Under the pieces are notes generated by a model that saw nothing but the letters and a program-made list of their open reading frames with translations, did not search any database and had not been told where the DNA came from. The translations under genes were made by a program, and so were the position numbers. 32,000 bases of DNA from Candidatus Saccharimonadota bacterium (GTDB taxonomy: Bacteria > Patescibacteriota > Saccharimonadia > Saccharimonadales > UBA4665), in the NCBI GenBank assembly GCA_016699935.1, contig CP064992.1, forward strand, positions 510,001 to 542,000, written 5' to 3'. Shown in pieces: positions 4,295 through 32,000 of this stretch; position 1 is the stretch's first letter; each line of letters begins with the position of its first letter.

Positions 4295-4541
4295 GGTAGG
4301 TATGATGTATTCAAACACACTTACAAGTAAAGGCCAAGTGACCATCCCGAAAGAGTTTCGGGATATGTTGGGTCTGCGGCCGGGGCAGAAGGTGCGGTTT
4401 ACAAAGACTAACCCTACAACTATCTCGATTTCTCGGCCACTCTCGGCGGCGGAGCTGCGCGCCAAGATTGGCCCGCCCAGCGGCAGCCAGCCTTTGACCG
4501 AGAAAGAAAAACAGCGGTTACGAGCAAGAGGCTTGTTGTAG
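4290..4541 (+). CDS. vapB: AbrB/SpoVT-fold antitoxin (VapB-like)
   Basis: The sequence ..TLTSKGQVTIPKEFRDMLGLRPGQKVRF is the classic swapped-hairpin motif. The stop TAG overlaps the GTG start of the PIN gene by 1 nt. The real start is probably the ATG at 4302 or 4305. Confidence 0.8.
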   Translation: MMVGMMYSNTLTSKGQVTIPKEFRDMLGLRPGQKVRFTKTNPTTISISRPLSAAELRAKIGPPSGSQPLTEKEKQRLRARGLL

Positions 4542-4927
4542 TGATTTTGGTAGACGCAAATCATGTCCTGCGATGGTTCTTGCAAGATGTGCCAGCTCAA
4601 GCGGCTCAGGTAGAGCGTTTACTCCAGTCGTCAGCACCAAATTGCTTAGAGCTGACGTCAGTCACTGTTGCCGAGCTGACGTACGTGTTGCGGACAATGG
4701 CATACGACCATGCGCAGATAGCGGGGGTTATGACTGGGTTGTGCTCGTTTGAATCAGTCAGGCAGTTTTCGCCGGTTGATGCTAGGGCGTTGGAGATTTT
4801 TAGCAACACCGTGCTGGATTACGAAGATTGTTTTCTCATAGCCCAAGCCCTGGTGGAAAACGGTGATATTGCTTCATTCGATAAAAAGCTACTCAAAACG
4901 TTTGAAAAGCTACAACTTGCGGAGTAG
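4541..4927 (+). CDS. vapC: PIN-domain toxin (VapC-like ribonuclease)
   Basis: The 128-aa product shows the acidic quartet spacing: D5 (ILVDAN), E in ..TVAELTYVL, D in LDYEDCFL and D in ASFDKKL. It is translationally coupled to the antitoxin. Confidence 0.8.
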   Translation: MILVDANHVLRWFLQDVPAQAAQVERLLQSSAPNCLELTSVTVAELTYVLRTMAYDHAQIAGVMTGLCSFESVRQFSPVDARALEIFSNTVLDYEDCFLIAQALVENGDIASFDKKLLKTFEKLQLAE

Positions 4928-10551: not shown

Positions 10552-10672
10552 ACCTGAGTCTCAAAACCGTCTCCACTTGTACTTGTGTCATTCCCATGAA
10601 GGCGGGAATCCATTTCATATATCTGGATCCCAGCCTTCGCTGGGATGACATCGTGGGGGTTTGAGATTCAGG
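10552..10672. mobile_element. 121-bp MITE-like element, copy 1 (double-hairpin core, imperfect terminal inverted repeats, 7-bp TSD)
   Basis: The terminal repeats are cctgagtctcaaaac and gtttgagattcagg. The core hairpins are gtcattcccatgaaggcgggaatcc (10587-10611) and ggatcccagccttcgctgggatgac (10625-10649). TCTTTAA flanks both sides at 10545-10551 and 10673-10679. The element is about 90% identical to copy 2. Confidence 0.8.
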
Positions 10673-11586: not shown

Positions 11587-12876
11587 ATGGCATCACGATT
11601 ACCAACACCAGGCGGAGACGATGGTACTTGGGGGGCAATCCTCAACGATTATCTTGCGCAAGCTCATAAAACCGACGGCACACTAAAAGACGATGTTGTC
11701 ACTGCGGCAGCATTAGCTCCAGGTGCTGTGACGGCTACAGGGGTTGCTGACGCAACTATTTCCGAGGCTAAGCTAGACGGGGCATTGCAGGCAAAGGTGA
11801 ATGGTTTGGGTGGTGGCGGTTCTCTAACCTTGTCTGGTGACGTCACTGGGCTAAGTACAGCAACAGTAGTCGCCAAGGTCAATGGAGTAACTGTATCTGG
11901 TACCCCAGCAGCTGGACAAGTTCTAAAAGCTACCAGTGCCTCAGCAGCAACCTGGCAAGCAGATGACACTGGCAGTGGTGCGGTCACGAGTGTTGCCGGT
12001 AGGACTGGTGCAGTTACACTTACGAAGACAGATGTTGGACTAGGTAATGTTGATAATACATCAGATGCGGCTAAGCCGGTTTCGACATTGGTTCAAACAG
12101 CCCTCAATTCAAAAGCAGACGATAGTGCAGCAGTGCACAACACTGGCGCTGAAACAGTTGCTGGTGTTAAGACCTTCTCAAGCTCTCCTGTTGTGCCAAC
12201 TCCTACGACGAACACTCAAGCGGCCAATAAATCATACGTTGACGGCGTAGCCGGTTCCGGTGCGCCAGATGCGTCAGCATCTACAAAGGGCATCGTACAG
12301 CTTACTGGTGATCTTGGTGGTAGCGCTACGGCGCCAACTGTACCGGGACTTGCTGGCAAGGCAAATACCAGCCATACCCACGCAGCAGCAGACATTACAT
12401 CTGGCACAATCGCGTCGGCTCGACTAGGTTCTGGCACAGCCAATGGTACAACGTACCTGCGCGGTGACGGCACCTGGGCAGCCGTATCAGGCGGCGTAGG
12501 TGGTGTCGCGGTTACTGGCACCCCGAGCGCTGGGCAAGTCCTAAAAGCGACGAGTCCAACCGATGCTACTTGGGCTGCTGATGCTACAGGAAGCGGGTAC
12601 ACATGGAATTTCCGAAGCATTTCAGCTGATGATACTGCAGCAGATGGCGACTACATGCTTGTTGATACTAGTGGATCTGGCGTTACGGTTACATTACCTG
12701 CACCTGTGAGTGGTGCTGCGGTACGTGTTAAACGAATGACTGCCGGTTCAAATAGTGTGCAAATAGTGCCCCAAAGTGGTCTAATTGACGGATCGGGTGT
12801 TGGATCTCATGTTCTCGGCAACCAATGGGATGCTATGGAATTTGTTAGCAATGGTACGAACTGGTACAGAGGATAA
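11587..12876 (+). CDS. phage tail-fibre / minor-tail-like repeat protein (429 aa)
   Basis: The motifs are LPTPGGDDGTWGAILNDYL (N-terminus), SVAGRTGAVTLTKTDVGLGNVDNTSDAAKPVS, KGIVQLTGDLGG, HTHAAADITSGTIASARLG and YLRGDGTWA. All of these are typical of phage fibre or minor-tail proteins. It is Gly/Thr/Ala-rich and has no signal peptide. The C-terminal 70 aa are paralogous to the C-terminus of the 603-aa ORF. Confidence 0.75.
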   Translation: MASRLPTPGGDDGTWGAILNDYLAQAHKTDGTLKDDVVTAAALAPGAVTATGVADATISEAKLDGALQAKVNGLGGGGSLTLSGDVTGLSTATVVAKVNGVTVSGTPAAGQVLKATSASAATWQADDTGSGAVTSVAGRTGAVTLTKTDVGLGNVDNTSDAAKPVSTLVQTALNSKADDSAAVHNTGAETVAGVKTFSSSPVVPTPTTNTQAANKSYVDGVAGSGAPDASASTKGIVQLTGDLGGSATAPTVPGLAGKANTSHTHAAADITSGTIASARLGSGTANGTTYLRGDGTWAAVSGGVGGVAVTGTPSAGQVLKATSPTDATWAADATGSGYTWNFRSISADDTAADGDYMLVDTSGSGVTVTLPAPVSGAAVRVKRMTAGSNSVQIVPQSGLIDGSGVGSHVLGNQWDAMEFVSNGTNWYRG

Positions 12877-13441: not shown

Positions 13442-15253
13442 ATGCCATTTACGGGATCTGGAACGGGCATACAAAATGCAAATGATATTTACTTCACTTT
13501 GCTTGCACAAAATCATGTTCTTCGTTATAACGGAACAACCGCTAAATGGAATAACGTCTCGCTTGTTGTTGGTACTGCAGATCTTGCCAACGACTCAGTT
13601 ACTGAACCGAAACTAGCGATATCTAATAGCCCGACTTTAAACCAAGTGCTTCGCTGGAATGGCACCGATCTGGAGTGGGTGACTATTTCTTATGAACCAA
13701 CTATCTCTACCGGCACCATTGCGCAATACTGGCGTGGTGATAAATCCTGGCAAACACTCGATAAAACCGTTGTCGGACTTGCAAATGTTGACAATACTTC
13801 AGATAGTACCAAAAATGCTGCTACAGCCACTCTTACGAACAAGACAATATCTGGTGCAACAAACACACTGTCCAACATCCCACAATCAGCAGTTACCAGT
13901 CTGACGACCGATTTAGCTGCAAAAGTCCCTCTTTCTACTGCAACGACAAAAGGGGATATCCTAGTATCAACCGGCGCTGGTGCTCTTTCTCGATTGGGTG
14001 TTGGAGCGAATAATTTTGTACTTACAGCAGATAGCGCACAAGCAACAGGGGTAAAATGGGCTACAGTTTCTGGGGCATTTGAGCCAACCATCACCGCTGG
14101 CACGATTGCGCAATACTGGAGGGGTGATAAATCCTGGCAAACACTCGATAAAACCGCTGTTGGGCTTGCTAATGCCGATAATACCGCTGACATCTCTAAA
14201 AACGTTCTAAGTGCGACAAAACTTACTACGGCACGAACAATAAATGGAGTTAGTTTTGATGGCTCTGCCAACATTACGGTAGCCGATAACGCAAAACTAG
14301 CATTATCTACTGTGACAACTAAAGGTGACATTGTTGCGGCTACTGGGTCTTCGACTTTGACTAGACTTGGTGTTGGCACTGACGGACAAGTTCTTACTGC
14401 GGATAGTTTACAGGCATCTGGAATCAAATGGTCAACACCTGCAACTGCGCCTGTTACTAGTGTCGCTGGTAGAACGGGAATAGTATCGCTTACCAAGTCT
14501 GACGTTGGTCTTGGTAATGTTGACAATACTGCAGATGCAAGTAAACCTATTTCTACTGCAACTCAAACAGCGCTTGATCTTAAAGTTGATGAGACTATAT
14601 CTGTAAGTGGCGGTACTTCGCTTACAGGCGGAGGTGTTTTAACTGCAAATCGCACACTGACACTGCTAAACGATTCTGCAACGCCCGGAAATAGCATGTA
14701 CTACGGTACTAATGGCACAGGTACCAAAGGCTTTTACGCCATCCCAACAGGTGATCCTACTATGGGTGGTGATCTAAGCGGAACAGCTTCAAATGCCCAG
14801 CTTGGTACGGGAGTTGTTGGTACGACTGAGCTAGCGGCGACAGGAGTGACTACGGCAAAGATTGCCGATAGTGCTATTACAGAGCCAAAATTAGCTATGA
14901 ATAACAGCCCAGCCGCTGGAAAAGTCATCGGCTGGGATGGTTCGAGTATGACCTGGACAGTAGGTTATGCTTATACACGAGTAAATGTTACAGGAACCCC
15001 CGGGACTTACACAGCAAACATATTTGATTATATCTTTGCTGATGCGACATCTGGCGGTATAACAATCACGTTACCAGCCCCTCAACTCAATTCCTTTGTG
15101 CGAATAAAGAGGATTTCGAGCGGTTCAAACGGTGTCCAGGTAGTTGCGCCAAATGGTTCATTTATAGACGGTAGCGGCGTCGGCTCCGACGTACTCGGTA
15201 GTCAATACGATAGTCGCGAGTACTGGAGCGATGGTACGAACTGGTATCGCTAG
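13442..15253 (+). CDS. phage tail-fibre-like repeat protein (603 aa) with an internal duplication
   Basis: The module EPTI(S/T)xGTIAQYWRGDKSWQTLDKT(V/A)VGLAN(V/A)DNT(S/A)D occurs twice, with a 34-nt identical DNA core at about 13735 and 14123. It also has TTKGDI(L/V)..LxRLGVG..VLTADS twice, SVAGRTGIVSLTKSDVGLGNVDNTADASKPIS, and a C-terminal domain shared with the 429-aa ORF. Confidence 0.75.
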   Translation: MPFTGSGTGIQNANDIYFTLLAQNHVLRYNGTTAKWNNVSLVVGTADLANDSVTEPKLAISNSPTLNQVLRWNGTDLEWVTISYEPTISTGTIAQYWRGDKSWQTLDKTVVGLANVDNTSDSTKNAATATLTNKTISGATNTLSNIPQSAVTSLTTDLAAKVPLSTATTKGDILVSTGAGALSRLGVGANNFVLTADSAQATGVKWATVSGAFEPTITAGTIAQYWRGDKSWQTLDKTAVGLANADNTADISKNVLSATKLTTARTINGVSFDGSANITVADNAKLALSTVTTKGDIVAATGSSTLTRLGVGTDGQVLTADSLQASGIKWSTPATAPVTSVAGRTGIVSLTKSDVGLGNVDNTADASKPISTATQTALDLKVDETISVSGGTSLTGGGVLTANRTLTLLNDSATPGNSMYYGTNGTGTKGFYAIPTGDPTMGGDLSGTASNAQLGTGVVGTTELAATGVTTAKIADSAITEPKLAMNNSPAAGKVIGWDGSSMTWTVGYAYTRVNVTGTPGTYTANIFDYIFADATSGGITITLPAPQLNSFVRIKRISSGSNGVQVVAPNGSFIDGSGVGSDVLGSQYDSREYWSDGTNWYR

Positions 15254-17036: not shown

Positions 17037-17158
17037 AAGTGGGGAGAGAATCGAAATTCTAGTTACATTAACTATCGGTGGGTGATAAAGAGCAGGTTTC
17101 CACTAGGCATATCAAACAGTGGATGCTTGAACCTTGTTGCTCACCAAAAGGAGGCTAC

Positions 17159-19307
17159 ATGAGCCAAATAACTACTAAAACAATTAACCCTTATGGCAAA
17201 GACCTTGTGGTTGTCGAAACAGAGTTTTGCGGTCGCAAACTGACACTAGAAGTAAACCGCGTTGGATTCCGTACTACGGCCAGTGTACTGGCACGCTACG
17301 GCGACACTGTGGTGCTTGGTACTGCCATGATGGGCAAACCAATCAAGGTATGGACTATTTCCCGCTTAGCATCGACTACGAAGAAAGTTTTATGCTGCAG
17401 GTAAGATCAGTGGCAGCCGTTTTATCAAGCGCGAAGGTCGTCCTAGCGACGATGCCATCCTTATCGGCCGACTTATCGACCGACCAATTCGTCCGCTTTT
17501 CCCAAAGGGTTATCGAAACGAAGTGCAGGGTGTTGCTAGTGTCCTCAGTATGGATCCGGCATTTCGCCCAGATATGATTGCCATGATCGCCATGAGCACA
17601 GCTCTAATGCTCACGGGTGCACCGTTTGACGGTCCAGTTGCCGGCGTCCGAGTCGGCATAAACGAAAAAGGCGATTACCAAGCATTCATGACTGCCGAAG
17701 AGCTAAATGCCAGCAAACTTGATCTAGTCGTCGCCGCTCGTGAAGGTGGTGTTATGATGGTCGAAGCCGGCGCCAATGAAGCTACCGAAGAAGAAGTCGT
17801 GGCAGCCTTGAAGTTTGCCGAGGAAGCAATTAAGCCCGCATTGGCAGCGCAAACCGAACTTGTCAAAAGGTCGGGGTGGAAGCCACCGAATATGAATTGG
17901 TGCTCCCAGACGAAAAATCCAAAAAGCCGTCGATGCTTGGGTTGAGGGAAAACTAGGTGAAGACCTACGAGCACCTTACCCAGAGCGAAACGAATTAGTC
18001 GTGACACTTCGCCAGCAAATGCACGATGCCTTTGCCGAAGAAATTGGGGCTGACGATTATGGCGTGTTACGTAGTGAATACGATGAGGCTTTTCAGATGG
18101 CGTTACACAAAGATGTGCGTAGAGGAATCGTCGAAGACGGCGTGCGACCAGATGGCCGCAAGCTCGACGAAATTCGTACGTTGAGCTCAGAAGTTGGTCT
18201 GCTGCCTCGTGCTCATGGCTCGAGCCTATTTACCAGGGGTATGACGCAGGGAATGAATATAGTTACCCTGGCGCCACTCAGTTATTCTCAAATGGTGGAC
18301 ACCATGGAGCGCAACGAAGAACGCCGCTACATGCACCACTACAATGCTCCCGGCTACACTGTCGGTGAAGTACGTCGACTGGGTTCACCTGGACGCCGCG
18401 AAATTGGCCATGGCTACTTGGCAGAGCGGGCACTGAGTGCCGTGCTGCCAGATGAGTCAGTCTTCCCCTACGCCATTCGCTCGGTTACCGAGATTATGAG
18501 TCAAAACGGATCAACTAGTATGGCAGCGACATGTTCTCGAGTTGTCTAGCTCTAATGGATGCTGGCGTACCACTCAAAGCGCCCGTTTCGGGTATTGCCA
18601 TGGGACTTATGGTGGACGGCGACAAGACTTACATATTGAGTGATATCGCTGACGCCGAAGATTTTGCCGGTGATATGGACTTCAAAGTAACCGGTACCAC
18701 CGTAGGCATCACAGCCTTGCAGATGGATATGAAAGTACACGGTTTGCCAGTAACAGTGCTAGCGGAAGCTTTAGCCCAAGGCAAAGACGGCCGAGCACAC
18801 ATATTGCGCCATATGCTAGAAACAATGCCAGAACCACGGGCAGAACTAAGCCCGTATGCCCCTCGGGTTGAAAGCATACAGATTAACCCTGACAAGATTC
18901 GCGAAATTATCGGTAAGGGTGGCGAGACTATTCAGAAAATTACCGGTGAAACTGGCACAGAAATCGACATCAAAGATGATGGTACGGTGATGATCGCTAG
19001 CCCAGATGGAGATAGCATACAGCGCGCCAAAGACTGGATTCTTTCTATCGTGGAAGATCCAGAAGTGGGCAAAATATATGTCGATAAGCCAGTAGTTTCT
19101 GTCCTGGACTTCGGTGCGTTCGTGCAGATTATGCCCGGCAAAGACGGTCTGGTGCATGTCAGCGAGATGAGCGAGGAACGGGTCAATAAACCGAGTGACG
19201 TTGTCAAAGAAGGCGACCTGGTCACCGTAAAACTCGTCGCCATAGACGACCGCGGTCGCCTGCAACTCAGCATGAAAGCCGCGCAACGGGAACTTGAAAA
19301 GAAATAG
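17159..19307 (+). CDS. pnp: polynucleotide phosphorylase (PNPase), at least four frame changes
   Basis: An AAAGGAGG Shine-Dalgarno precedes the start. Five ORF fragments read continuously: MSQITTKTINPYG.., ..MDYFPLSIDYEE.., ..FIKREGRPSDDAILIGRLIDRPIRPLFP.., ..DGRKLDEIR..HGSSLFTRG.., ..MDAGVPLKAPVSGIAMGL... KH (IIGKGGETIQKI) and S1 (GKIYVDKPVVSVLDFGAFVQI) domains follow. Confidence 0.95.
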
Positions 19308-19312
19308 AAGCA

Positions 19313-19786
19313 ATTTAGCAGGTAACAGAAAGACATTGAGCAGAAATTTGGCATATGGCAGGTAGCAGAGATTCCGCTAGCGACGACAGTCAAAAGAAAC
19401 GAGCACTTCTCGAACGTAGGATGTTGGTTTTGCGGCCGATGTGATACGAAAGCTCGAGAAAGCACCCCGTATACCTAATCGCTTAGTAGATCAACTTACG
19501 GGTTCGTCATCGAGTATTGGCGCAAATTACGCCGAAGCATGTAATGGCGTGTCTCGTATGGATTTTCGCAACAAAATCTATATAGCTAAAAAGGAAGCAG
19601 CGGAAACCCGTTTTTGGTTGGATTTGTGTATGGAAGTACAGCCAAAGGATGATGAATGGGTGCGTTTACGTCAAGAAGCCCATGAACTGCTCATAATATT
19701 ACAGGCAATAGTTAACGCATAAAAGCGGGTCTGCGAAATGAAAAATGCCAAATTTCTGCTAAATGCTCAATGTCTTTCTGCTAAAT
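19313..19786. mobile_element. inverted-repeat-bounded cassette carrying the four-helix-bundle gene
   Basis: The left arm atttagcag..aaagacattgagc..agaaatttggcat (19313-19354) is mirrored by the right arm atgccaaatttctgc..gctcaatgtcttt..ctgctaaat (19745-19786). The cassette fills the pnp-udg gap almost exactly, with 5 nt and 12 nt to spare. Confidence 0.6.
19355..19722 (+). CDS. four-helix-bundle protein (23S rRNA intervening-sequence protein family), one frame change near 19415-19440
   Basis: The family signature is ..QLTGSSSSIGANYAEACNGVSRMDFRNKIYIAKKEAAETRFWLDL... The N-terminal ..KKRALLER / ..GFAADVIRKL lies in an adjacent frame starting from the ATG at 19355. Confidence 0.75.
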
Positions 19787-20422: not shown

Positions 20423-20604
20423 GGATAAATAGTTAAAGATTAATGGTAGATGATTAATTAATAAGGATAAATGGTTAAGAAAATAAGAATAATTTACTAA
20501 ATAATGTTGTCATCCCAGAAATAAACGGGGTCCAGAACAGAAAGAAACTAGATTTCAGCTCATGCAGAAATGACAACCCGAACATAATGTAACAAGGAGA
20601 AAAT

Positions 20605-22590
20605 ATGGATAATAAACCAGGAATGAAGAATGGAGAACGAAGAATGCAAAAACCACAAAATAGCCGAGGGGGTGGGAATCAGCGCCGGTCGGGGCAGAAG
20701 AATAGTCCACAGCAGAACGGTAGCTCACAACCGTCAGCAAATGGGAAACCGGCCGTGAGCCGTGGTGCTGCTGTGCGGGCGCAAAAGCGAACGCAGATGG
20801 ATGCTCAGCGCGTGGCAAACCAGTGGATGCCAGCGCAGGTTGACGAAAACCGACGAGCCAACTTCATAGACGATACACCACGTCTAAAGATTATCGGCCT
20901 CGGTGGTATGGACGGCGGTGGTAGCAAGAACATGATGCTTGTGGAGTATGTGAACGATGCGGTTGTCATTGACGCCGGAAACGACCTCAGTGTCGACCTG
21001 CCAGGCATAAACTACGGTATTGCCGACACGGCATACATGGAAAACATCCGGCACAAGCTTCGTGCCTATATCATCACGCACGGACACCTCGACCATATTG
21101 GTGGCTTGCCGCACATTGTACCGAAGTTCCCGGCGCCAGTGTATGGCAGCAAATTTACCATTGGCCGCGTCCATGAGATTTTTGAGAATTTTGGTTTGCC
21201 TATGCCCGAAGGTTTTGAACTCAAAACAGTTGAGATGAACGAAGATACACACGAACGGCTCAAAATTGGCGAATTCTACGTCGAGCTAGTGCGGGTGACG
21301 CACTCGATCCCTGGGAGCACCATTGTGGTACTCGATACACCAGTCGGGCGTATCATTAACACTGGTGACTTCCGGTTCGATCCTAACCCGCTAGACCATG
21401 AACGTACCGATATGGAGCGGCTGATTGAGCTTGGCAATGAAGGCGTACTGGCGCTTCTGAGCGAAAGCACTACTGTGGAGCGTCTGGGACGAACGCCTTC
21501 TGAAAGTACTATCGAAAAAAGCTATGTCGACATAATGCAGCAAGCGCCTGGGCGTATCTTCGTTGGCGTGTTCAGCACGAACATGAACCGTATACAGATG
21601 ATTGTGAATGCTGCTGTCCACCACGGGCGCAAAGTCGCCATAGATGGTCGCAGCATGGTCAGTACCCTCGAGATGGCAGTGCGCCACGGGTTTATGAAGA
21701 TTCCTAAGGGCACATTCATACCGATTGCCCAGGTTGGCACCATGACAGATGGCCAAGTCGTTGTGATTTGTACCGGAAGCCAGGGCGAGCCATCTTCGGC
21801 ACTCCAGCGTATGGCCAACGGCGAACATCGCCATATTAAACTCAAAGAGCAGGACACGGTTATTCTTTCGAGTACACCAATCCCAGAGAGCGGCAACGAC
21901 GCGCTTATTGGTCAGATGGTCGATGACCTCGTAAAAAACCACGTACATGTGTTTGAACACCGCAATCACGACCTCGATAAGGTTGGCCCACTGCACGTAT
22001 CTGGTCATGCTAGTCAGGACGAATACGCCGAAATGATTCAGATGACAAAACCTAAGTTTTTCATCCCAATTTACGGCGCTTTCCGTGTCAAACAGCGTCA
22101 TATAGACCTCGCTATAGAGCAGGGTATACCACGCGCAAACTGTCTGAATGCACTGAACGGAGAAGTAATTGCCCTCACACCAGATAAGATGGAAATCATA
22201 GGTGAAGTACCCTCCGGTACTATCCTTGTCGACCAAACGGGAGCTATCGTGAGTAATGTGGTGGTGAAGGACCGCGTACTTCTGGCAGAGGAAGGCCTCG
22301 TCGCTGTTGTACTCACGGTCGACAAAAAGACAGGAAACTTGCTCACGAGCCCCGACATCATCAGTCGTGGATTCATATACATGCGTGAGCAAGAGGAAAT
22401 TATGAATGGTCTCAGGGGCGAAGTGCGCCGGGCTGTCACGCAGCGTTACAAGCGCATAGACATAGACCGCTTTAAGGCAGAGTTAAAAGACCACATTACC
22501 CACTACTTGTTTGAGCAGACCGGCCGTAGTCCCATAGTCATACCGGTGATAAACATCATCGGTGGCAAGAGCGAAGATACTGCAGCGTAA
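20605..22590 (+). CDS. rnj: ribonuclease J with an N-terminal basic extension of about 85 aa
   Basis: The metallo-beta-lactamase motif is YIITHGHLDHIGG. The beta-CASP and C-terminal regions are present, and the 661-aa ORF is intact. The first 85 aa or so are Gly/Gln/Arg/Asn-rich. Confidence 0.9.
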   Translation: MDNKPGMKNGERRMQKPQNSRGGGNQRRSGQKNSPQQNGSSQPSANGKPAVSRGAAVRAQKRTQMDAQRVANQWMPAQVDENRRANFIDDTPRLKIIGLGGMDGGGSKNMMLVEYVNDAVVIDAGNDLSVDLPGINYGIADTAYMENIRHKLRAYIITHGHLDHIGGLPHIVPKFPAPVYGSKFTIGRVHEIFENFGLPMPEGFELKTVEMNEDTHERLKIGEFYVELVRVTHSIPGSTIVVLDTPVGRIINTGDFRFDPNPLDHERTDMERLIELGNEGVLALLSESTTVERLGRTPSESTIEKSYVDIMQQAPGRIFVGVFSTNMNRIQMIVNAAVHHGRKVAIDGRSMVSTLEMAVRHGFMKIPKGTFIPIAQVGTMTDGQVVVICTGSQGEPSSALQRMANGEHRHIKLKEQDTVILSSTPIPESGNDALIGQMVDDLVKNHVHVFEHRNHDLDKVGPLHVSGHASQDEYAEMIQMTKPKFFIPIYGAFRVKQRHIDLAIEQGIPRANCLNALNGEVIALTPDKMEIIGEVPSGTILVDQTGAIVSNVVVKDRVLLAEEGLVAVVLTVDKKTGNLLTSPDIISRGFIYMREQEEIMNGLRGEVRRAVTQRYKRIDIDRFKAELKDHITHYLFEQTGRSPIVIPVINIIGGKSEDTAA

Positions 22591-22721
22591 AAAACTGCTA
22601 TAGGGTAAACAACAAGCCCGCCGAGTTGCAAAAAACACAGAAGGAAATCGCTGCCGAACAGCAAGCTCGTTTTCAGGCTATGCGCGAACGCCTCCTCAAC
22701 CAAGACCCCCGCGTTGATTAA
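22575..22721 (+). repeat. direct repeat, left copy (147 bp), spanning the last 16 nt of rnj and its 3' flank
   Basis: It is identical to 24251-24396 except for one extra C in a C-run (gaccccc versus gacccc). This was verified by eye along its whole length. Confidence 0.95.
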
Positions 22722-22835
22722 GTACGCAGCATCTCTTTCGTGAATAGCAGAATGAATAAATTAACCAGCCGTGAAGCATAGCAGCTTATCTGACTAGTAA
22801 ACGGTCGCCGTTGCATACTATCCCTCGTATAATAG

Positions 22836-22864
22836 TTGACCATATAACAAAAATGTGCTATTAT
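22836..22864 (+). promoter_or_regulatory. cassette promoter (TTGACC-17-TGcTATTAT, extended -10)
   Basis: TTGACC lies at 22836-22841 and TATTAT at 22859-22864, preceded by TGC. It sits in an AT-rich stretch just inside the left repeat. Confidence 0.5.
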
Positions 22865-22897
22865 GCAGTAACGTTATAGAAAATAAAAAAATAAAAT

Positions 22898-23509
22898 ATG
22901 CAATGTGAAAAACTAGGCGACGGCCATATTACAAATGGCGATTTTTCTACGGCTCCTCCTACTGCAGGGGTGAGTCGGTTATCGCAGACTTTTGAGAGAC
23001 TGTGTGAGTCAGAAATCACGAATGACGCATTACTACCAAAAGAGGTCATCGCAACGGGCAGCAATATAGTACGTGATGGGCAAATCGGCGTTATTAAAAG
23101 TAATACGGGTTTTGAAGTATCATTTAAGTTGACGGACGAGGCATATGCTGATTTAGAGAGTCGTGTAGATTTGCCGCCGAGCGATGGAACGATCCGGCGT
23201 AAACAGCCGTATAAGTTTCTAGTGGCCTACGACAGTGAGGAGCAAAAAGTTATAAGCAGCGAAAGAGTTGTAGAGACGGGAACTGCTGAGAGGTATACGA
23301 TTAATGGTATTACGGCAGATATCTCCCATTATGATCCAAACTGGCAGGCACTCAACGGCTTAGTTACCATTATGGTTCCCAATGAAGCTGCTGGCGCTGA
23401 AGCGGGGGAATTAGCTAGTAATGTAGATGGAATCTGTCGTACACTTTTCGGGTGTAGCGATGTATTTCAACCTCCTGACGAAGCCGCAGAAGCATTGCAA
23501 AAAAACTAG
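22898..23509 (+). CDS. hypothetical protein (203 aa), possibly the N-terminal half of one 456-aa cassette protein
   Basis: I recognise no family. The stop lies right after the A7 run at 23499-23505. With one more A the frame reads ..AEALQKKLAYLKHHRLEESPETAYVPELVRQE.. straight into the next ORF. Confidence 0.5.
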   Translation: MQCEKLGDGHITNGDFSTAPPTAGVSRLSQTFERLCESEITNDALLPKEVIATGSNIVRDGQIGVIKSNTGFEVSFKLTDEAYADLESRVDLPPSDGTIRRKQPYKFLVAYDSEEQKVISSERVVETGTAERYTINGITADISHYDPNWQALNGLVTIMVPNEAAGAEAGELASNVDGICRTLFGCSDVFQPPDEAAEALQKN

Positions 23510-23556
23510 CGTACTTAAAGCATCACCGTCTAGAAGAATCACCCGAGACAGCATAT

Positions 23557-24266
23557 GTGCCAGAGCTTGTTCGTCAAGAGGTATTTCCGGGTCATTTGGC
23601 TTATGTTGACCCAAACAAGCACAAGAAATATGAAGAGGAATTTGGCCAAATACTCATATTTCATAACGTTGCGCTCGAAGAAGATATCGTAAGCATCGTG
23701 AAGAATGGCCTACTTGCAGCCCGCGAAAGGACAGAACGTGGCATATTAGCGGGTGGCTTATCAGTATTGAGTGATTTGAAGGCAGGTGGTGCCGATAGCG
23801 CATACGTGCGCATGGTGACCTCAGAGAGCATAAAAATGGAAAAACAACTGATGATTATGGAGGAATGGCGGTTTTGTTAAGGCCATCCCTTCTAGATCGA
23901 ACGGATTGGTACGCGTACCCTAATGATAGCTATGGATCGACAACGCCAGAGGATATAGCCACTAGCTTACCACCGGCAGGACTCTTTCGTCACATTAACG
24001 AATGCGGCTTAGATAATGTTGAGCAATATAATGAATCAATGTTTGCTACCGGCATCTCCCCAAATGAAATTGCTGGCATCGTTGTTAGTGATGAAGAATC
24101 CCAGCGGCGTATAATAACAAGATTGAAAGCCAGCGGAGTTACAGTAGTGTATGGTATTGAACTTGAAGATTTTGTGCAAGTAGCCACAACCTATACGCAA
24201 ATGAACGCCATTTCTCATGGAATAAACGGCGTCCGACAGCAGAAATTAGTAGATACTGCAGCGTAA
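23557..24266 (+). CDS. putative ADP-ribosyltransferase/Tpt1-fold-like protein, one frame change at the A5 run 23840-23844
   Basis: Fragments 23557-23880 and 23865-24266 join as ..SESIKMEKTTDDYGGMAVLLRPS... The motif order resembles H-Y/R-E ART-fold enzymes: ILIFHNVALEEDIVSIVKNGLL, then AYVRMV, then VLLRPSLLDRTDWYAYPNDSYGS, then QYNESMFATGISPNEIAGIVV. The last five codons (DTAA-stop) lie inside the right direct repeat. Confidence 0.35.
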
Positions 24267-24396
24267 AAAACTGCTATAGGGTAAACAACAAGCCCGCCGA
24301 GTTGCAAAAAACACAGAAGGAAATCGCTGCCGAACAGCAAGCTCGTTTTCAGGCTATGCGCGAACGCCTCCTCAACCAAGACCCCGCGTTGATTAA
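24251..24396 (+). repeat. direct repeat, right copy (146 bp)
   Basis: See the left copy at 22575-22721. The two copies enclose 1529 bp (22722-24250). Confidence 0.95.
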
Positions 24397-24417
24397 CTTT
24401 CCCTAAGCAGATAGGCA

Positions 24418-24538
24418 CCTGAGTCTCAAAACAGTTTCCACTTGTACTTGTGTCATTCCCGCGAAGGCGGGAATCCATTTCATATATCTGGATCCCAGCC
24501 TTCGCTGGGATGACAACCTGGGGTTTTGAGACCCAGAT
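24418..24538. mobile_element. 121-bp MITE-like element, copy 2 (7-bp TSD ATAGGCA)
   Basis: The terminal repeats are cctgagtctcaaaac and gttttgagacccag(at). The hairpins are gtcattcccgcgaaggcgggaatcc (24452-24476) and ggatcccagccttcgctgggatgac (24490-24514). ATAGGCA lies at 24411-24417 and again at 24539-24545. Confidence 0.8.
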
Positions 24539-24585: not shown

Positions 24586-24873
24586 ATGCCAAAAATAAAC
24601 AAAGTTCGTCCTTCTGAAGAATGGCTTGCTGTCGAAGCACATAACGATAAAGATTTGTTATACCTCTTAACCTTGAAAGAAGATGTGATTGAGGAAAGAC
24701 TTGCATATAGGCGAGGCGATAAGCCAGGCGACGATGAAGGTTATGACGTCGCAGTTAGCGGGTTAAATAATCTCATCGCAAGCGCCAGGCAGAACTTAAT
24801 ATCGATCCAAACATTGGTCCACTTGATTACATCAAGAACAAGGAATAGACTACCGCAATCAATAATTGTATAA
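24586..24873 (+). CDS. small hypothetical protein (95 aa)
   Basis: The product is MPKINKVRPSEEWLAVEAHNDKDLLYLLTLKEDVIEERLAYRRGDKPGDDEGYD... The listed ORF start at 24526 lies inside the MITE and upstream of the promoter, so I prefer the ATG at 24586. I recognise no family. Confidence 0.45.
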   Translation: MPKINKVRPSEEWLAVEAHNDKDLLYLLTLKEDVIEERLAYRRGDKPGDDEGYDVAVSGLNNLIASARQNLISIQTLVHLITSRTRNRLPQSIIV

Positions 24874-24884
24874 TCAAAAGCATT

Positions 24885-27141
24885 ATGGCGAAAAAGAAAA
24901 GCAAGCTAAAAAGAAAGTGGCAGCACCAGTCGAGCGAGAACCGTCGCCCGTTGTGGGCTATGTGCTTGCGGTCGTGTTCATACTGACGGCTATCTTCATA
25001 TTTTTAGGCGGTTTTCACGCCGGTGGTACGCTACCCAAAGGCCTTTTTGGGGCTATGAGCTGGCTGTTTGGCTGGGGCGCGTGGCTCGTGCCGATTAGTC
25101 TGCTGTACTGGGGGTATTACAAATTTACTAATGACGATCACCGTGTGCCGCGTGGACGTGTTTTCAGTATGTATATGTTCCTAGTGCTTATGTCGGCATG
25201 GTTTTTCACCGCATTCGCACGTTCCAGCGATGAGCCAGGGGTAGCAACACAAATCGTAGGCGGCAGCGGCGGTGAAGTTGGCGGTGCGGTAGGTGACGCG
25301 GTACTGTCGGCACTCGATAAAGTACCGGCGAGTCTGTTGTTTTTCACCTTTGGTCTGCTGACATTCTTCTTTGCCTTTGGCATATCACCAAAGGTTATAC
25401 TGAGCCTTGGCAATCTCTTCCACCGCCGTAACAGTGAGCCAGAAGGTGAACTAGCAGCATTGAAAGCCAAAGCGGCTGAGAGTGGCTTCCAGCTGAATGA
25501 AGGTGTACCGGTCGTGAAGCACAGTGAAGGTTCCCTTGCGAAAGAACAAGTCCATCACTCCAATTTCCGGAATACTGCACAAAAATTGAGCACAAACGAA
25601 ACTCACGAAGCGCTGACGACTGCGAGCGACCCAGATTGGAAACTGCCAGGCGTCGACTTACTCGATCAGCGCCAAGATAAGGCCGATGCAGGCAATGTTG
25701 AGGGCAATGCCCGGATTATTAAAGAAACTTTTGCCAACTTTGCTATAGATGTGGAGATGGAGGGGGCAAATATCGGTCCACGCGTCACACAGTATACACT
25801 GCGGCCACCGACTGGAGTGAAACTTACGAAAATAACGGCACTCGAAAACAACCTCGCTCTGGACCTCGCGGCGACGACCATTCGTATGGAAGCGCCTATA
25901 CCGGGAAAGAGGGCGGTTGGTATAGAAGTGCCAAACGTAAAGGGTGCTACTGTGCGATTAAGCTCTATTTTCCAGTCGCGCGAGTGGGCAGAGTCGGAGG
26001 GAGCGCTCACATTTGCTATTGGTAAGGACATCGTCGGACATAGCGTAGTTGCGGATCTGGCACGTATGCCGCACATCCTAGTTGCTGGTCAGACCGGCTC
26101 TGGTAAATCTGTCATGATAAACGACATTTTAACAAGCTTGCTGTATCGCAACAGTCCAAGTGATCTCAAACTTATCCTTGTCGACCCCAAACAGGTGGAG
26201 CTTACGCCGTACAATGATCTTCCGCACTTGCTGACACCCGTGATTCACGAGCCAGAAAAGTGCATTAGTGCGCTCAAATGGGCAGTGGCTGAAATGGAGC
26301 GACGTCTGCGCACTATGGCAGAGGTGAGTAAGCGCAATATTGAGGAGTACAATCTCATAAAGCCCGAGGAAAAAATGCCGTACGTCGTTATTGTCATAGA
26401 TGAGCTCAGTGACCTCATGATGATGGCTGCTCGTGATGTCGAGGCGCTTATCGTTCGTGTGGCGCAAAAAGCTCGAGCAGCCGGAATACATCTCATTCTT
26501 GCGACGCAGCGACCGAGTGTGAACGTCATCACGGGGCTCATTAAAGCCAACGTACCGGCTCGGATTGCCTTTACCACTGTGAGCCAAGTAGATAGCCGTA
26601 CCATCATAGACCAAATGGGCGCAGAGAAACTGCTGGGGCGAGGAGATATGCTGTACCAAACCTCTGAAATGCCCGCACCAAAGCGTGTTCAAGCTGCGTT
26701 TGTGAGCGACGGCGAAACGGTGAAGGTGAATGATTTTATACGCGAGCAGCGGGCACAGACTACAACGACGAAGTCGTCAGCCAACCAGTACAAATTGGTA
26801 AGGGTGGCGTAGTCGTGACCGATACATCGCATGACAATGCCGACGAAGACATGTTCCACGATGCCGTACGCGTGGTCATAGAAAGTCGCAAGGCCTCCAC
26901 GTCACTACTGCAGCGGCGGCTACGGATCGGTTATGGGCGTGCAGCGCGGCTCATGGAGGAAATGGAAGAGCAGGGTATTATAGGCGCAGCTGACGGCAGT
27001 CGACCCGCGATGTATTGGTTAGTTCACTCGACCAAGTCTTTGGTGGCGGTGGGGTTCAGGGGCGATGACGCAGGAGTCGATCTTGACGAATATGGCGTTC
27101 CTACCGAACCAAATGATAGTAGCGAATACCTTGCTCGCTAA
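24885..27141 (+). CDS. ftsK: DNA translocase FtsK, at least two or three frame changes
   Basis: N-terminal transmembrane helices are present. The motor domain has Walker A (VAGQTGSGKS), Walker B (VVIVIDELSDLMM) and ..ILATQRPSVNVITG... The gamma winged helix reads ASTSLLQRRLRIGYGRAARLMEEMEEQGIIG and lies in the 26815-27141 fragment. The likely start is ATG 24885 (MAKKKSKLKRK) in an adjacent frame, and the track ORF starts at TTG 24866. Confidence 0.9.
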
Positions 27142-30244: not shown

Positions 30245-30274
30245 CTGTCATTCCCGCGCAGGCGGGAATCCATC
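30245..30274 (+). repeat. left 30-bp inverted repeat / hairpin flanking the GIY-YIG gene
   Basis: The sequence ctgtcattcccgcgcaggcgggaatccatc is the exact reverse complement of 30561-30590. It has an internal 8-bp stem attcccgc/gcgggaat. Confidence 0.95.
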
Positions 30275-30276
30275 TT

Positions 30277-30615
30277 ATGAATACATACTACGTCTACATA
30301 TTAGCAAGTAAGCCAAACGGAACGCTCTATATTGGCGTGACGAATAATCTCGAGCGTCGGCTGTATGAGCACAAGAATACTCTAGCTGATGGTTTTACGA
30401 AAAAATATGGCGTAAAACAACTTGTTTATTATGAAGAATATAATAGCGTAGAGGCGGCCATTATTCGGGAAAAACAACTCAAGAAATGGGAGCGTGCGTG
30501 GAAGGTTCGACTTATAGAAGAGCGAAACTCGTATTGGAACGATTTGAGTTTAGAGTGGGGGATGGATTCCCGCCTGCGCGGGAATGACAGCGAAACTGTC
30601 AGGATTCAGTCATGA
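30277..30615 (+). CDS. GIY-YIG nuclease family protein (small stand-alone URI-domain type)
   Basis: The motifs YYVYILAS..GTLYIGVTNNLERRLYEH.. give GIY/YIG, then Arg, then Glu. ..IIREKQLKKW.. follows. The last 17 codons or so (..MDSRLRGNDSE..) are translated from the right hairpin repeat. The stop overlaps the tlyA start. Confidence 0.85.
   Translation: MNTYYVYILASKPNGTLYIGVTNNLERRLYEHKNTLADGFTKKYGVKQLVYYEEYNSVEAAIIREKQLKKWERAWKVRLIEERNSYWNDLSLEWGMDSRLRGNDSETVRIQS
30561..30590 (-). repeat. right 30-bp inverted repeat / hairpin flanking the GIY-YIG gene
   Basis: The sequence is gatggattcccgcctgcgcgggaatgacag, a perfect inverted copy of 30245-30274. Confidence 0.95.
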
Positions 30616-31387
30616 AAGAACGTTTGGATATAACTGTAGCGAAACGGGGGTTGGTGGCCAGCAGGAGCCAGGCAGAAAGCTATGTGCGACTCGGAAAGGT
30701 ACTGGTGAATGGTAAGCCCGCGGTGAAAAGTGGACAATTGGTATCTGAGGCCGACAAAATTGAGGTGAAAACAGACGTGCAGTATGTGAGCCGGGCGGCA
30801 CTAAAACTTGAGAGTGCCGATGCGACATTTCACATTGACTGGCAGGGAAAAACTGTTCTGGATGTAGGGAGTAGTACGGGTGGGTTTACGCAGTACACGC
30901 TCGCTCACGGGGCGAAAAAGGTAATCGCCGTAGATGTCGGTACCGAGCAGTTACACCCGAGTCTGCGCAGTGATCCGCGGATTGAACTGCATGAAAAAAC
31001 TGACATACGTGATGTTTGGCTTCGCCAAACAGAACCAAGTTACGAGTCATGACTCAAGAAAGAAAGCAGTTTTCATAGAAGGAAAAATAGATATTGTTGT
31101 CGGTGACGTCAGTTTTATATCACTCCGAGAAATCTTACCTCATGTGGCTAAACTTATGTCACGTGGTTCTCTGCTTATCGCTATGGTTAAGCCGCAGTTT
31201 GAAGCAGGGCATAGTAGACTCAAGCACAAGGGGTCATCAAAAATGACCGGATGCGCCGCGATATATTGCAGGACTTCGAAGCCTGGGCGCGCGCGTTTTT
31301 CATCGTCGTCGACAAAAAGACTCTGAAGTGGCTGGCAGCAAGGGCAATGTAGAGCGCTTCTACCTCCTCCGCAAACTCCAACACTGA
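30612..31387 (+). CDS. tlyA: TlyA-family rRNA 2'-O-methyltransferase (S4 domain + FtsJ-like MTase), at least three frame changes
   Basis: The S4-like N-terminus reads RLDITVAKRGLVASRSQAESYVRLGKVLVNGK. The SAM motif is VLDVGSSTGGFTQ. ..DVSFISLREILPHVAKL..AMVKPQFEAG.. follows, and the tail ..GSKGNVERFYLLRKLQH ends at TGA 31385-31387. All of this is spread over three frames. Confidence 0.85.
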
Positions 31388-31766: not shown

Positions 31767-32000
31767 GAGCGAACAAGCGAACCGGTGCGTAAGCGCCGGC
31801 TTTAGGAGAGGGAGGAGAGTCGTTTCGGATTCATTCCGAAACAACGAGGAGGGACGGTAGTCCCTCCTGAGCGTACTAAAGCGTACCGGTGCGTAAGCGC
31901 CGGCTTTAGGAGGAGGAGGAGAGTCGTTTCGGATTCATTCCGAAACAACGAGGAGGGACGGTAGTCCCTCCTGAATATGGACGGTAGTCCCTCCTGAATA
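31767..32000. repeat. tandem repeat of a three-hairpin unit, 104-nt period, 2.2 copies or more, running off the window
   Basis: Unit starts lie at 31781 and 31885, and a partial third copy lies at 31979-31997. Each unit contains ccggtgc-gtaa-gcgccgg (GNRA-type loop), gtttcgg-attcatt-ccgaaac and aggaggga-cggtag-tccctcct. The copies differ by 1-2 nt. Confidence 0.85.

Follow-up and report, generated by a model that had tools for sequence, protein, structure and literature searches.

The arrays left by C-terminal displacement in Rhs, CdiA and type VI secretion system (T6SS) genes, with their orphan modules (PMC5361080), are the described systems closest in working to the locus presented here; for T6SS and Rhs arrays, displacement is modelled as homology-facilitated illegitimate recombination (PMC5361080). 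Other systems with partial likeness are integrase-mediated islands and prophages, including cis-mobilizable elements (CIMEs) and satellites, integron gene cassettes and the microcin H47 island of E. coli, which is reported to be lost through recombination between its repeats (PMC3191183, PMC5426353). Cultivated Saccharibacteria take up DNA via ComEC and integrate it by homologous recombination, i.e., they are naturally transformable (PMC10633639). Here, we study a stretch of 32,000 nt from a Candidatus Saccharimonadota bacterium (GenBank assembly GCA_016699935.1, contig CP064992.1, positions 510,001 to 542,000 of the forward strand), called the window in the following and numbered from its first letter. 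In this window, a cassette with a single accessory gene sits between the RNase J gene (rnj) and ftsK, bracketed by two nearly identical direct repeats that correspond to the former 3' coding end of rnj.

With the Rhs, CdiA and T6SS arrays the locus and its counterparts in related genomes have in common that new DNA arrives beside a conserved gene, which serves as homology anchor, that a former 3' end is pushed downstream while a short conserved direct repeat is retained, and that successive events build up arrays with stronger decay of the distal, older copies. Both lack an integrase and carry conflict-type cargo. They differ in the anchor, which is a housekeeping ribonuclease gene here, and in the displaced piece (a variable toxin tip there, a conserved tail here). 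Furthermore, each enclosed gene forms a transcription unit of its own instead of extending the anchor gene, and the arrays are short (one or two units). What is new is the housekeeping-gene anchor with a conserved tail as displaced piece, in a host from the candidate phyla radiation (CPR). In a limited literature search, we found no paper describing rnj as an insertion site.

Integrase-mediated islands likewise show direct repeats that copy the 3' end of the target gene, an identity block that stops at the gene end and a target that is intact in relatives. In contrast to them, the rnj arrays hold no integrase or excisionase, the elements are 0.8-1.5 kb long with one gene and an identity block of 30-147 nt, nucleotide-level conservation of the target does not exceed that of coding sequence, and no matching attP is found on viral contigs. 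Integron gene cassettes are similar in being compact single-gene units, each with a 50-150 nt repeat, placed in tandem at a fixed site, and in that excised circles would not replicate. Unlike integrons, the arrays have no intI beside them (every locus is flanked by udg, rnj and ftsK), the repeat belongs to the coding sequence of the neighbouring gene and shows neither inverse-core/core symmetry nor a hairpin, and the cassette has its own promoter-like site (a consensus match) where integron cassettes carry a promoterless ORF (open reading frame). Finally, the H47 island is reported to be small as well, flanked by direct repeats and without an encoded site-specific recombinase. It is larger than the rnj elements and resides in another host, and its repeats do not derive from a housekeeping-gene tail.

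The repeat and the RNase J tail

The two repeat copies, both on the + strand, span 22575..22721 (copy A, 147 nt) and 24251..24396 (copy B, 146 nt). They are 1676 nt apart from start to start with 1529 nt in between, and they align without any mismatch. The sole difference is one C within a C-run (C5 in copy A, C4 in copy B). The alignment thus reproduces the near-identical 146/147-bp repeats around 1529 bp given in a preliminary description of the window that was made from the sequence alone. A perfect match of 146 nt is not explicable by chance, and the 32-kb window contains no second gene-bracketing repeat of similar length and identity.

Short-homopolymer frameshifts are frequent in the window. 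We count at least eight, i.e., three in pnp (17078-19307), one in ftsK (24866-27141), one in an FtsJ-like methyltransferase gene (30612-31378), two in the cassette gene (22898-24266) and one in the linker of rnj. They look like long-read consensus errors and not like pseudogenisation. Given this error profile, the C5/C4 difference is probably spurious, and the structure is probably covered by single reads of far more than 1.7 kb.

As assembled, the rnj ORF (20605..22590, + strand) encodes 661 aa with the Pfam domains RNase_J_b_CASP, RNase_J_C and Lactamase_B. Its end falls 16 nt inside the repeat, which begins 13 nt upstream of the TAA (22588-22590). Correspondingly, the first 16 nt of copy B are the last four codons plus the stop of the accessory gene, such that the final cassette ORF terminates with ...DTAA* just as rnj does.

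This rnj ORF ends with ...GGKSEDTAA*, about 45 codons before the ends of all relatives. The 120 nearest RNase J homologues are 685-732 aa long and all terminate with ...RFQxMRERLLxQDxRxD; in 120/120 the reading frame continues through the sequence of the repeat (…AAEQQARFQAMRERLLNQDPRVD*). Their general layout is ...VNIIGGK, followed by a variable linker and then by KTPEEIAAEQQxRFQxMRERLLxQDxRxD*. The nearest rnj genes are without exception from Saccharimonadales. The tail peptide is encoded directly 3' of rnj in 80 related loci, with tblastn matches to the remnant at the rnj end in 70 or more, and every relative examined has a continuous frame of rnj and tail, among them the loci L001, L002, L003, L005, L014, L027, L037 and L067. 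Since the RNase J proteins of relatives all end in this tail, the repeat represents, by comparison with them, the ~49 final codons of rnj in its ancestral form, through the ancestral stop. Copy A would accordingly hold the rnj linker and the coding sequence of the ancestral C-terminal tail up to the ancestral stop at 22719-22721, and copy B a displaced rnj 3' end. The preliminary description had placed the repeat onset just ahead of the rnj stop and had noted the shared DTAA ending. Both observations stand, but nearly all of the repeat turns out to be former rnj coding sequence.

The tail is still recognizable in the window. Three-frame translation yields the conserved remnant NNKPAELQKTQKEIAAEQQARFQAMRERLLNQDPRVD* at 22608..22721 (+ strand) in a frame that differs from that of rnj. 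Two in-frame TAA codons (at 22588 and 22606) and a 1-nt deletion separate it from the rnj frame. When compared with the closest linkers (L003 and L096), the TAA codons stand where Lys codons are expected and the deletion lies in an A-run. Stop codons and deletion are common to both repeat copies. Among the genomes compared, only the window genome shows the early rnj stop. The tail as such, i.e., ~30 conserved aa past Pfam RNase_J_C, is a feature of RNase J in these Saccharimonadales (e.g., L003 9850-9965; proteins P0017-P0136), and the window genome is the only one observed in which it is not in frame.

We also asked for nucleotide-level signals in the tail. Synonymous codon entropy is 0.87 in the rnj tail and 0.87 gene-wide, i.e., there is no added constraint on the nucleotide level. 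As single-stranded DNA, the repeat folded with z-scores of +1.1 and +1.25 (-0.13 and 0.02 for the 49-nt core) and formed no attC-like hairpin. Equal synonymous entropy and missing folding together give no support to a dedicated site in the DNA or to a structure of the attC type. For lack of excess synonymous-site conservation, a hidden DNA site or RNA structure in the rnj tail was discarded. Scanning the window for Rfam families and tRNAs was likewise negative, i.e., there is no tRNA, tmRNA or known RNA that could serve as target.

Recurrence and ancestry of the layout

The order udg-rnj-[variable]-ftsK is kept in 80 species-level genomes. The spacer between rnj and ftsK measures ~0.3-5 kb and its contents are mostly unrelated. 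A partial second rnj tail (30-147 nt), which always ends at the rnj stop codon, is found in eight arrays from seven genomes, namely the window, L001 (two arrays), L014, L037, L067 (identical to L161), L150 and L158. The length of the distal copy and its identity to the proximal one are 49 nt and 94% for the first cassette of L001, 60 nt and 87% for its second cassette, 86 nt and 95% for L014, 49 nt and 88% for L037, 60 nt and 100% for L067, 57 nt and 79% for L150, and 30 nt and 63% for L158. All six further genomes are independent short-read assemblies with diverged repeat copies. The same architecture thus recurs in other species, which makes it a real biological pattern and not a one-off, and the earlier picture, in which a single-gene insert with its own promoter lies between direct repeats copied from the rnj 3' end, is borne out.

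The enclosed genes differ between arrays. A DarT-like gene is found in the window and in L001, whose other cassette holds a PDC-S01 AAA_14/DUF4143 candidate defence ATPase. L014 and L150 enclose a PLD-like protein and L158 a PurM-like protein, while the genes in L037 and L067 are two unknowns. Third-position GC content (GC3) of the cargo never equals that of rnj; it is lower except in L067, and the gap is only 0.05 in L158. In L001, two different cassettes form a tandem array. For this species, every one of 12-15 independently assembled contigs shows rnj, cassette 1, cassette 2 and ftsK in this order, and no empty or alternative site was found among them.

Two side observations concern the slot itself. 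In L037 (11210-11270), L067 (10730-10807) and L158 (4130-4171), the displaced tail is in frame with the preceding gene across a gap consisting of the stop plus 0-4 codons, such that stop-codon readthrough would add an RNase J tail to that gene; in-frame displaced tails in three or four of the eight arrays are within chance expectation. The largest spacer (5 kb; L051 9908-14992) encodes an IS1595-family transposase and a Replic_Relax (plasmid replication-relaxation) protein, and no rnj-tail copy was detected in it.

Next, we compared the repeat copies with each other. Over L014, L037, L067 and L158, all differing codons (19/19) are synonymous, with synonymous/non-synonymous counts of 4/0, 5/0, 1/0 and 9/0, respectively. 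Since the copies differ solely at synonymous sites, which is unlike a neutral relic formed in place, they appear to stem from different functional rnj alleles that were joined by horizontal recombination. This test was made on the arrays of relatives; the copies in the window are identical and therefore uninformative for it. L158 is the most telling case, in that its distal copy agrees with the rnj tail of the same genome at 17/27 positions, compared to 25-26/27 for the tails of another clade. Furthermore, the relatives L169-L171 have no distal copy but show the PurM-like gene enclosed in L158 as the ancestral neighbour of rnj. In L158, the newcomer is therefore not the enclosed gene but the distal copy, perhaps together with the DNA to its right.

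Some arrays are old. The cassettes of L014 and L150 are orthologous (82% nucleotide identity for rnj, 77% for the cargo). The copies in L014 are still 95% identical though the cassette predates ~20% nucleotide divergence, which suggests gene conversion. Decay is seen in the older arrays, i.e., the second cassette of L001 and L150.

The window, L001 and L003/L096 are about equidistant from each other (79-82% nucleotide identity for rnj, pS ~0.7), and the cassette is not present in L003 and L096. With this distribution, the cassette was gained twice, or gained once and lost once. In both cases, the perfect 146-nt repeat of the window is no untouched relic of that age. Because synonymous sites between the cassette-bearing lineages are saturated, recent gene conversion or recombination in the very recent past is the better explanation. 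The preliminary description had offered a recent event or gene conversion for the same identity. Either one fits, given the saturated synonymous sites relative to the L001 lineage, but recent mobility is not supported. A shared ancestral 147-nt repeat of L001 and the window found no support in a shuffle comparison. The idea that the sequence between the cassette gene and its 49-nt repeat in L001 is a decayed long repeat of the window type was dropped, its similarity being not above that of shuffles.

We detected no recombinase family in the cassette, in the window ORFs that were tested or in the flanks as far as annotated in the L001 species, in agreement with the earlier statement that none is encoded in the insert. 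A degenerate rnj-tail motif had no match in IMG/VR (2.9 million viral contigs). In metagenome contigs it occurs at 67 loci, of which only L150 and L158 are new arrays, and five matches without a preceding rnj are chance matches in unrelated DNA. The repeat was expected beside other cargo if it were part of a cassette-like system, but no unit of cassette plus repeat was found away from rnj in these contigs, nor was there a match to a 36-mer pattern specific to the window. Among 5.8 billion proteins the nearest rnj product is 91% identical, i.e., no empty site from the same species was recoverable, and exact-protein look-ups for the rnj product and cassette ORF of the window returned nothing on record. 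Recent mobility, as first proposed, is moreover contradicted by the orthologous cassette of L001, which sits at the same place with a repeat of 49 nt and 94% identity, an arrangement that the proposal itself had named as speaking for old age. As to an excisable circle, 146 nt of identity are enough for a RecA-mediated circle of 1.68 kb, while a mobile circular element of 1.7 kb is unsupported. A dif/Xer reading (integrative mobile element exploiting Xer, IMEX) via the adjacent ftsK, which would call for a duplicated dif-like 28-bp site at the replication terminus, was also considered and discarded, the repeat being rnj coding sequence and cumulative GC skew rising monotonically over 19-28 kb without a switch.

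Proposed origin of the distal tail copies

The reading we favour, and to which we assign roughly even chances, takes the repeat for a displacement scar of transformation-type recombination at an rnj-ftsK hot spot, which was later homogenised and can be deleted by RecA. In this scenario, two haplotypes of the rnj-ftsK slot would recombine after DNA uptake, of which cultivated Saccharibacteria are capable (PMC10633639). Homology to a conserved flank (rnj or ftsK) would hold the incoming DNA at one end, and an illegitimate join within the rnj tail would fix the other end and thereby displace a partial tail copy, such that the left boundary marks the join and the right boundary, at the stop codon, the end of homology between the haplotypes. 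Both copies would then become substrates of the host's RecA, and no dedicated integrase would be needed. Gene conversion would keep the copies alike and would have made those of the window identical; it probably also moved the decayed linker (two stops and a frameshift) into rnj itself. An unequal or intramolecular crossover would remove the cassette as a non-replicating circle of 1.68 kb, and on transfer to another strain the distal copy could be used as right-hand homology arm. Observed directly are the anatomy and how it recurs, that the repeat is coding sequence, that the copies in relatives come from different alleles and that a recombinase is missing; the mechanism of transformation plus illegitimate join and the gene conversion are our inference.

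Several observations weigh against this explanation. Each array encloses exactly one gene (8/8), its stop codon lies 0-10 nt ahead of the distal copy in 6/8 arrays, and the lengths of the distal copies cluster at 49, 49, 57, 60 and 60 nt. One-sided illegitimate joining does not predict such tidy single-gene units, whereas a cassette system with a defined site would. A donor haplotype was found for 0 arrays, and the direction of transfer is directly indicated in L158 only. In addition, the first ~30 nt of the repeat are ambiguous. They align to the linker of L003, which fits a native rnj linker, but the C-terminus of the accessory gene matches that of the L001 orthologue in length, which fits a 3' end native to this gene. 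The latter case requires one further illegitimate junction. Finally, the stops and the frameshift in both copies of the window could be consensus errors, with no gene conversion involved.

The regularity of the units leads to the first rival, according to which they are non-autonomous single-gene cassettes that are excised as circles and inserted at the end of rnj by a recombinase encoded elsewhere, with the tail copy acting as attC or attP. Compactness, one gene per array and the close spacing of its stop to the distal copy all speak for it, and so do a right boundary that is always the rnj stop codon, copy lengths (30-147 nt) that recur near 49 and 60 nt, and the tandem array of two different cassettes in L001. 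The cargo (DarT-like ADP-ribosyltransferase, PDC-S01, PLD nuclease) looks typical of cassette or defence genes, and two cargo families each occupy the same site in two species with repeats of unlike lengths. We nevertheless consider such a system unlikely. Neither the window nor the annotated flanks provide the recombinase. At synonymous sites, the rnj tail is no more constrained than the remainder of the gene, such that no conserved core is evident, and the repeat forms no attC-like hairpin. The motif does not occur in the 2.9 million viral contigs, no unit was found apart from rnj, and the cassette is present in every recovered contig (12-15) of the L001 species. The enclosed gene of L158 is an ancestral resident and not a cassette, and the cassettes bring their own promoters.

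Displacement by recombination has also to be separated from a duplication of the rnj 3' end in place, which would accompany gene insertion (by template switching or repair of a staggered break) without horizontal transfer and leave the distal copy as a neutral relic. This would agree with the similarity of the distal copies of L001, L014 and L037 to their own rnj tails (ranks 1 to 3 among 76), with the identical or nearly identical copies in the window and L067, and with the decayed relics in L001 (second cassette) and L150. The 19/19 synonymous codon differences in four arrays are unexpected for a neutral relic, though, and the distal copy of L158 has 63% identity to its own tail versus 96% to tails of another clade. 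A duplication from staggered cuts leaves unexplained why the right boundary is exactly the stop codon in 8/8 arrays. We thus rate duplication in place as improbable, and the old tandem duplication named as alternative in the preliminary description is disfavoured in its simple form, given that all differences between the copies of four arrays are synonymous.

An assembly or polishing artefact, by which the duplication was created or homogenised (e.g., when a mixture of strains with and without the gene was flattened), appears very improbable. The consensus is indeed error-prone (at least eight homopolymer frameshifts in 32 kb), the only difference between the copies is a homopolymer length, both contain unusual stop codons, and the searched collections hold no second assembly of the species. 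But the layout occurs in six other genomes, which are short-read assemblies with diverged copies and thus do not reflect a collapse, and that of L001 is reproduced in 12-15 separate assemblies, with an orthologue of the window's cassette at the same locus. Furthermore, a contig of 1.23 Mb implies reads far longer than 1.7 kb.

The enclosed gene, other window features and implications

The cassette starts with an AT-rich leader (22722..22897, + strand) in which the composition profile shows a GC content of 0.39-0.42 at the insert start. The leader contains a sigma-70-like promoter candidate with extended -10 (TTGACC-17-TGnTATTAT, 22836-22864; a consensus match with a scan score of 10/12 including the TG). 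Both features had been described before and were recovered.

The accessory gene (22898..24266, + strand) has ~455 codons, which are distributed over three frames (22898-23509, 23557-23880 and 23865-24266). It is colinear with an intact ORF of 471 aa in L001, to which the three pieces show aa identities of 59%, 66% and 55%. Where the preliminary description counted one or two proteins, there is hence a single gene in three frame pieces. The frame changes at an A7 run (23497-23503) and at A5 runs (~23833-23845), and the ORFs match the NCBI proteins IPL68_03490, 03495 and 03500 (contig of 1,226,308 bp) identically. With respect to the L001 orthologue, pN/pS is 0.37 with saturated synonymous sites. 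Because of this ratio, the gene is taken to have been under purifying selection, and its frameshifts are therefore probably sequence errors.

No Pfam, PHROG or PADLOC match was obtained for the accessory gene. An AlphaFold structure prediction was made for the L001 orthologue (pLDDT 73.8, pTM 0.75). The best Foldseek matches against the PDB are to DarT (7omu with E 2.6e-5, 8baq with E 4.8e-4; probability 1.0 each), the TM-scores of the DarT matches normalised to the target are 0.29-0.53, and sequence identity is 12-18%. According to this model, the C-terminal half of the protein is predicted to adopt an ADP-ribosyltransferase fold, closest to DarT and toxin-like. The cargo thus resembles DarT, the DNA ADP-ribosyltransferase toxin of DarTG, in the structure of its C-terminal half and, on the level of the family, in that one distant homologue adjoins an ADP-ribosylglycohydrolase gene. 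It differs from DarT in the low identity, in having no Pfam or PADLOC DarT match and in an additional N-terminal domain of ~230 aa of unknown fold. Within the cassette, the ORF list contains no gene for a DarG-like macrodomain partner.

Distant homologues of the cargo (550-750 aa) are present in other CPR lineages, away from rnj. The possibility that the cargo gene itself targets rnj was discarded on these grounds. In L164-L168 (loci of P0005, P0008 and P0010), a small ORF (114-127 aa) comes directly behind each distant homologue; it overlaps the stop of the homologue in L164-L167 and starts 13 nt past it in L168. The small ORFs and the one nearby ADP-ribosylglycohydrolase gene suggest that the distant DarT-like homologues form toxin-antidote pairs. 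Specialists may take note of two by-products, a CPR-wide family of DarT-like ADP-ribosyltransferases without Pfam model and the conserved tail that all close RNase J homologues have past the Pfam C-terminal domain.

Downstream of copy B, the hypervariable spacer holds a small lineage-specific ORF from the ORF list (24586..24873, + strand), for which no fetched locus contains a homologue. Small ORFs directly upstream of ftsK were tried as markers of an 'empty' configuration and given up, showing no detectable conservation. The conserved right flank is ftsK (24866..27141, + strand; Pfam FtsK_SpoIIIE, FtsK_alpha and FtsK_4TM), with a frameshift near 26745 (two frames in tblastn).

Between copy B and this ORF, 21 nt past the repeat, lies an interspersed element of 120 nt at 24417..24536 (no strand assigned), which resembles a miniature inverted-repeat transposable element (MITE) or repetitive extragenic palindrome (REP) and comprises two GC-rich hairpins (…GTCATTCCCGCGAAGGCGGGAATCC…). 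It is 93% identical to 10552-10671, and partial copies are found at 20506-20536, 30245-30274 and 30561-30590. Such elements are also seen beside rnj in relatives, i.e., directly past the rnj stop in L037 and between udg and rnj in L001. A gene for a GIY-YIG endonuclease of 112 aa (30277-30615) is placed within a perfect 30-nt inverted pair of the hairpin arm (30245-30590). This locus is REPtron-like in layout and may be the autonomous partner of the interspersed elements.

Further repeats and small genes were noted elsewhere in the window. A gene of the 23S-rRNA-intervening-sequence protein family (19441-19722) lies between inverted repeats of 36 nt that are 81% complementary (19334-19765), and 31775-31974 holds a 96-nt unit twice in tandem (97% identical) with internal hairpins. 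Two large ORFs (11587-12876 and 13442-15253) have internal repeats of 61-123 nt in common; the former shows weak DUF5907 and BppL_N (phage baseplate/fibre-like) matches, the latter has no Pfam match. A PIN-domain ORF (4541-4927), close to small unannotated ORFs, is possibly the toxin of a toxin-antitoxin pair.

The CPR, including the Saccharibacteria, have tiny genomes with few recognisable mobile elements, and little is known about the ways in which accessory and defence genes reach them. In this respect, the rnj-ftsK slot is a concrete and recurrent route of gene entry, and the displaced rnj tails are scars that can be dated. We tentatively put forward, as a doubtful extension, that Saccharimonadales possess a recombinase-independent, or at any rate integrase-free, cassette system in which a duplicated piece of the RNase J tail serves as portable recombination site or homology arm for single genes. 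If true, defence and toxin genes would be captured, stacked, swapped between species and excised at the rnj-ftsK slot, i.e., in an integron-like manner that builds on host recombination. Should a dedicated mechanism stand behind the tidy units, it would be a new cassette system; otherwise, the scars are still markers by which, in an uncultivated phylum, gene flow driven by transformation can be traced.

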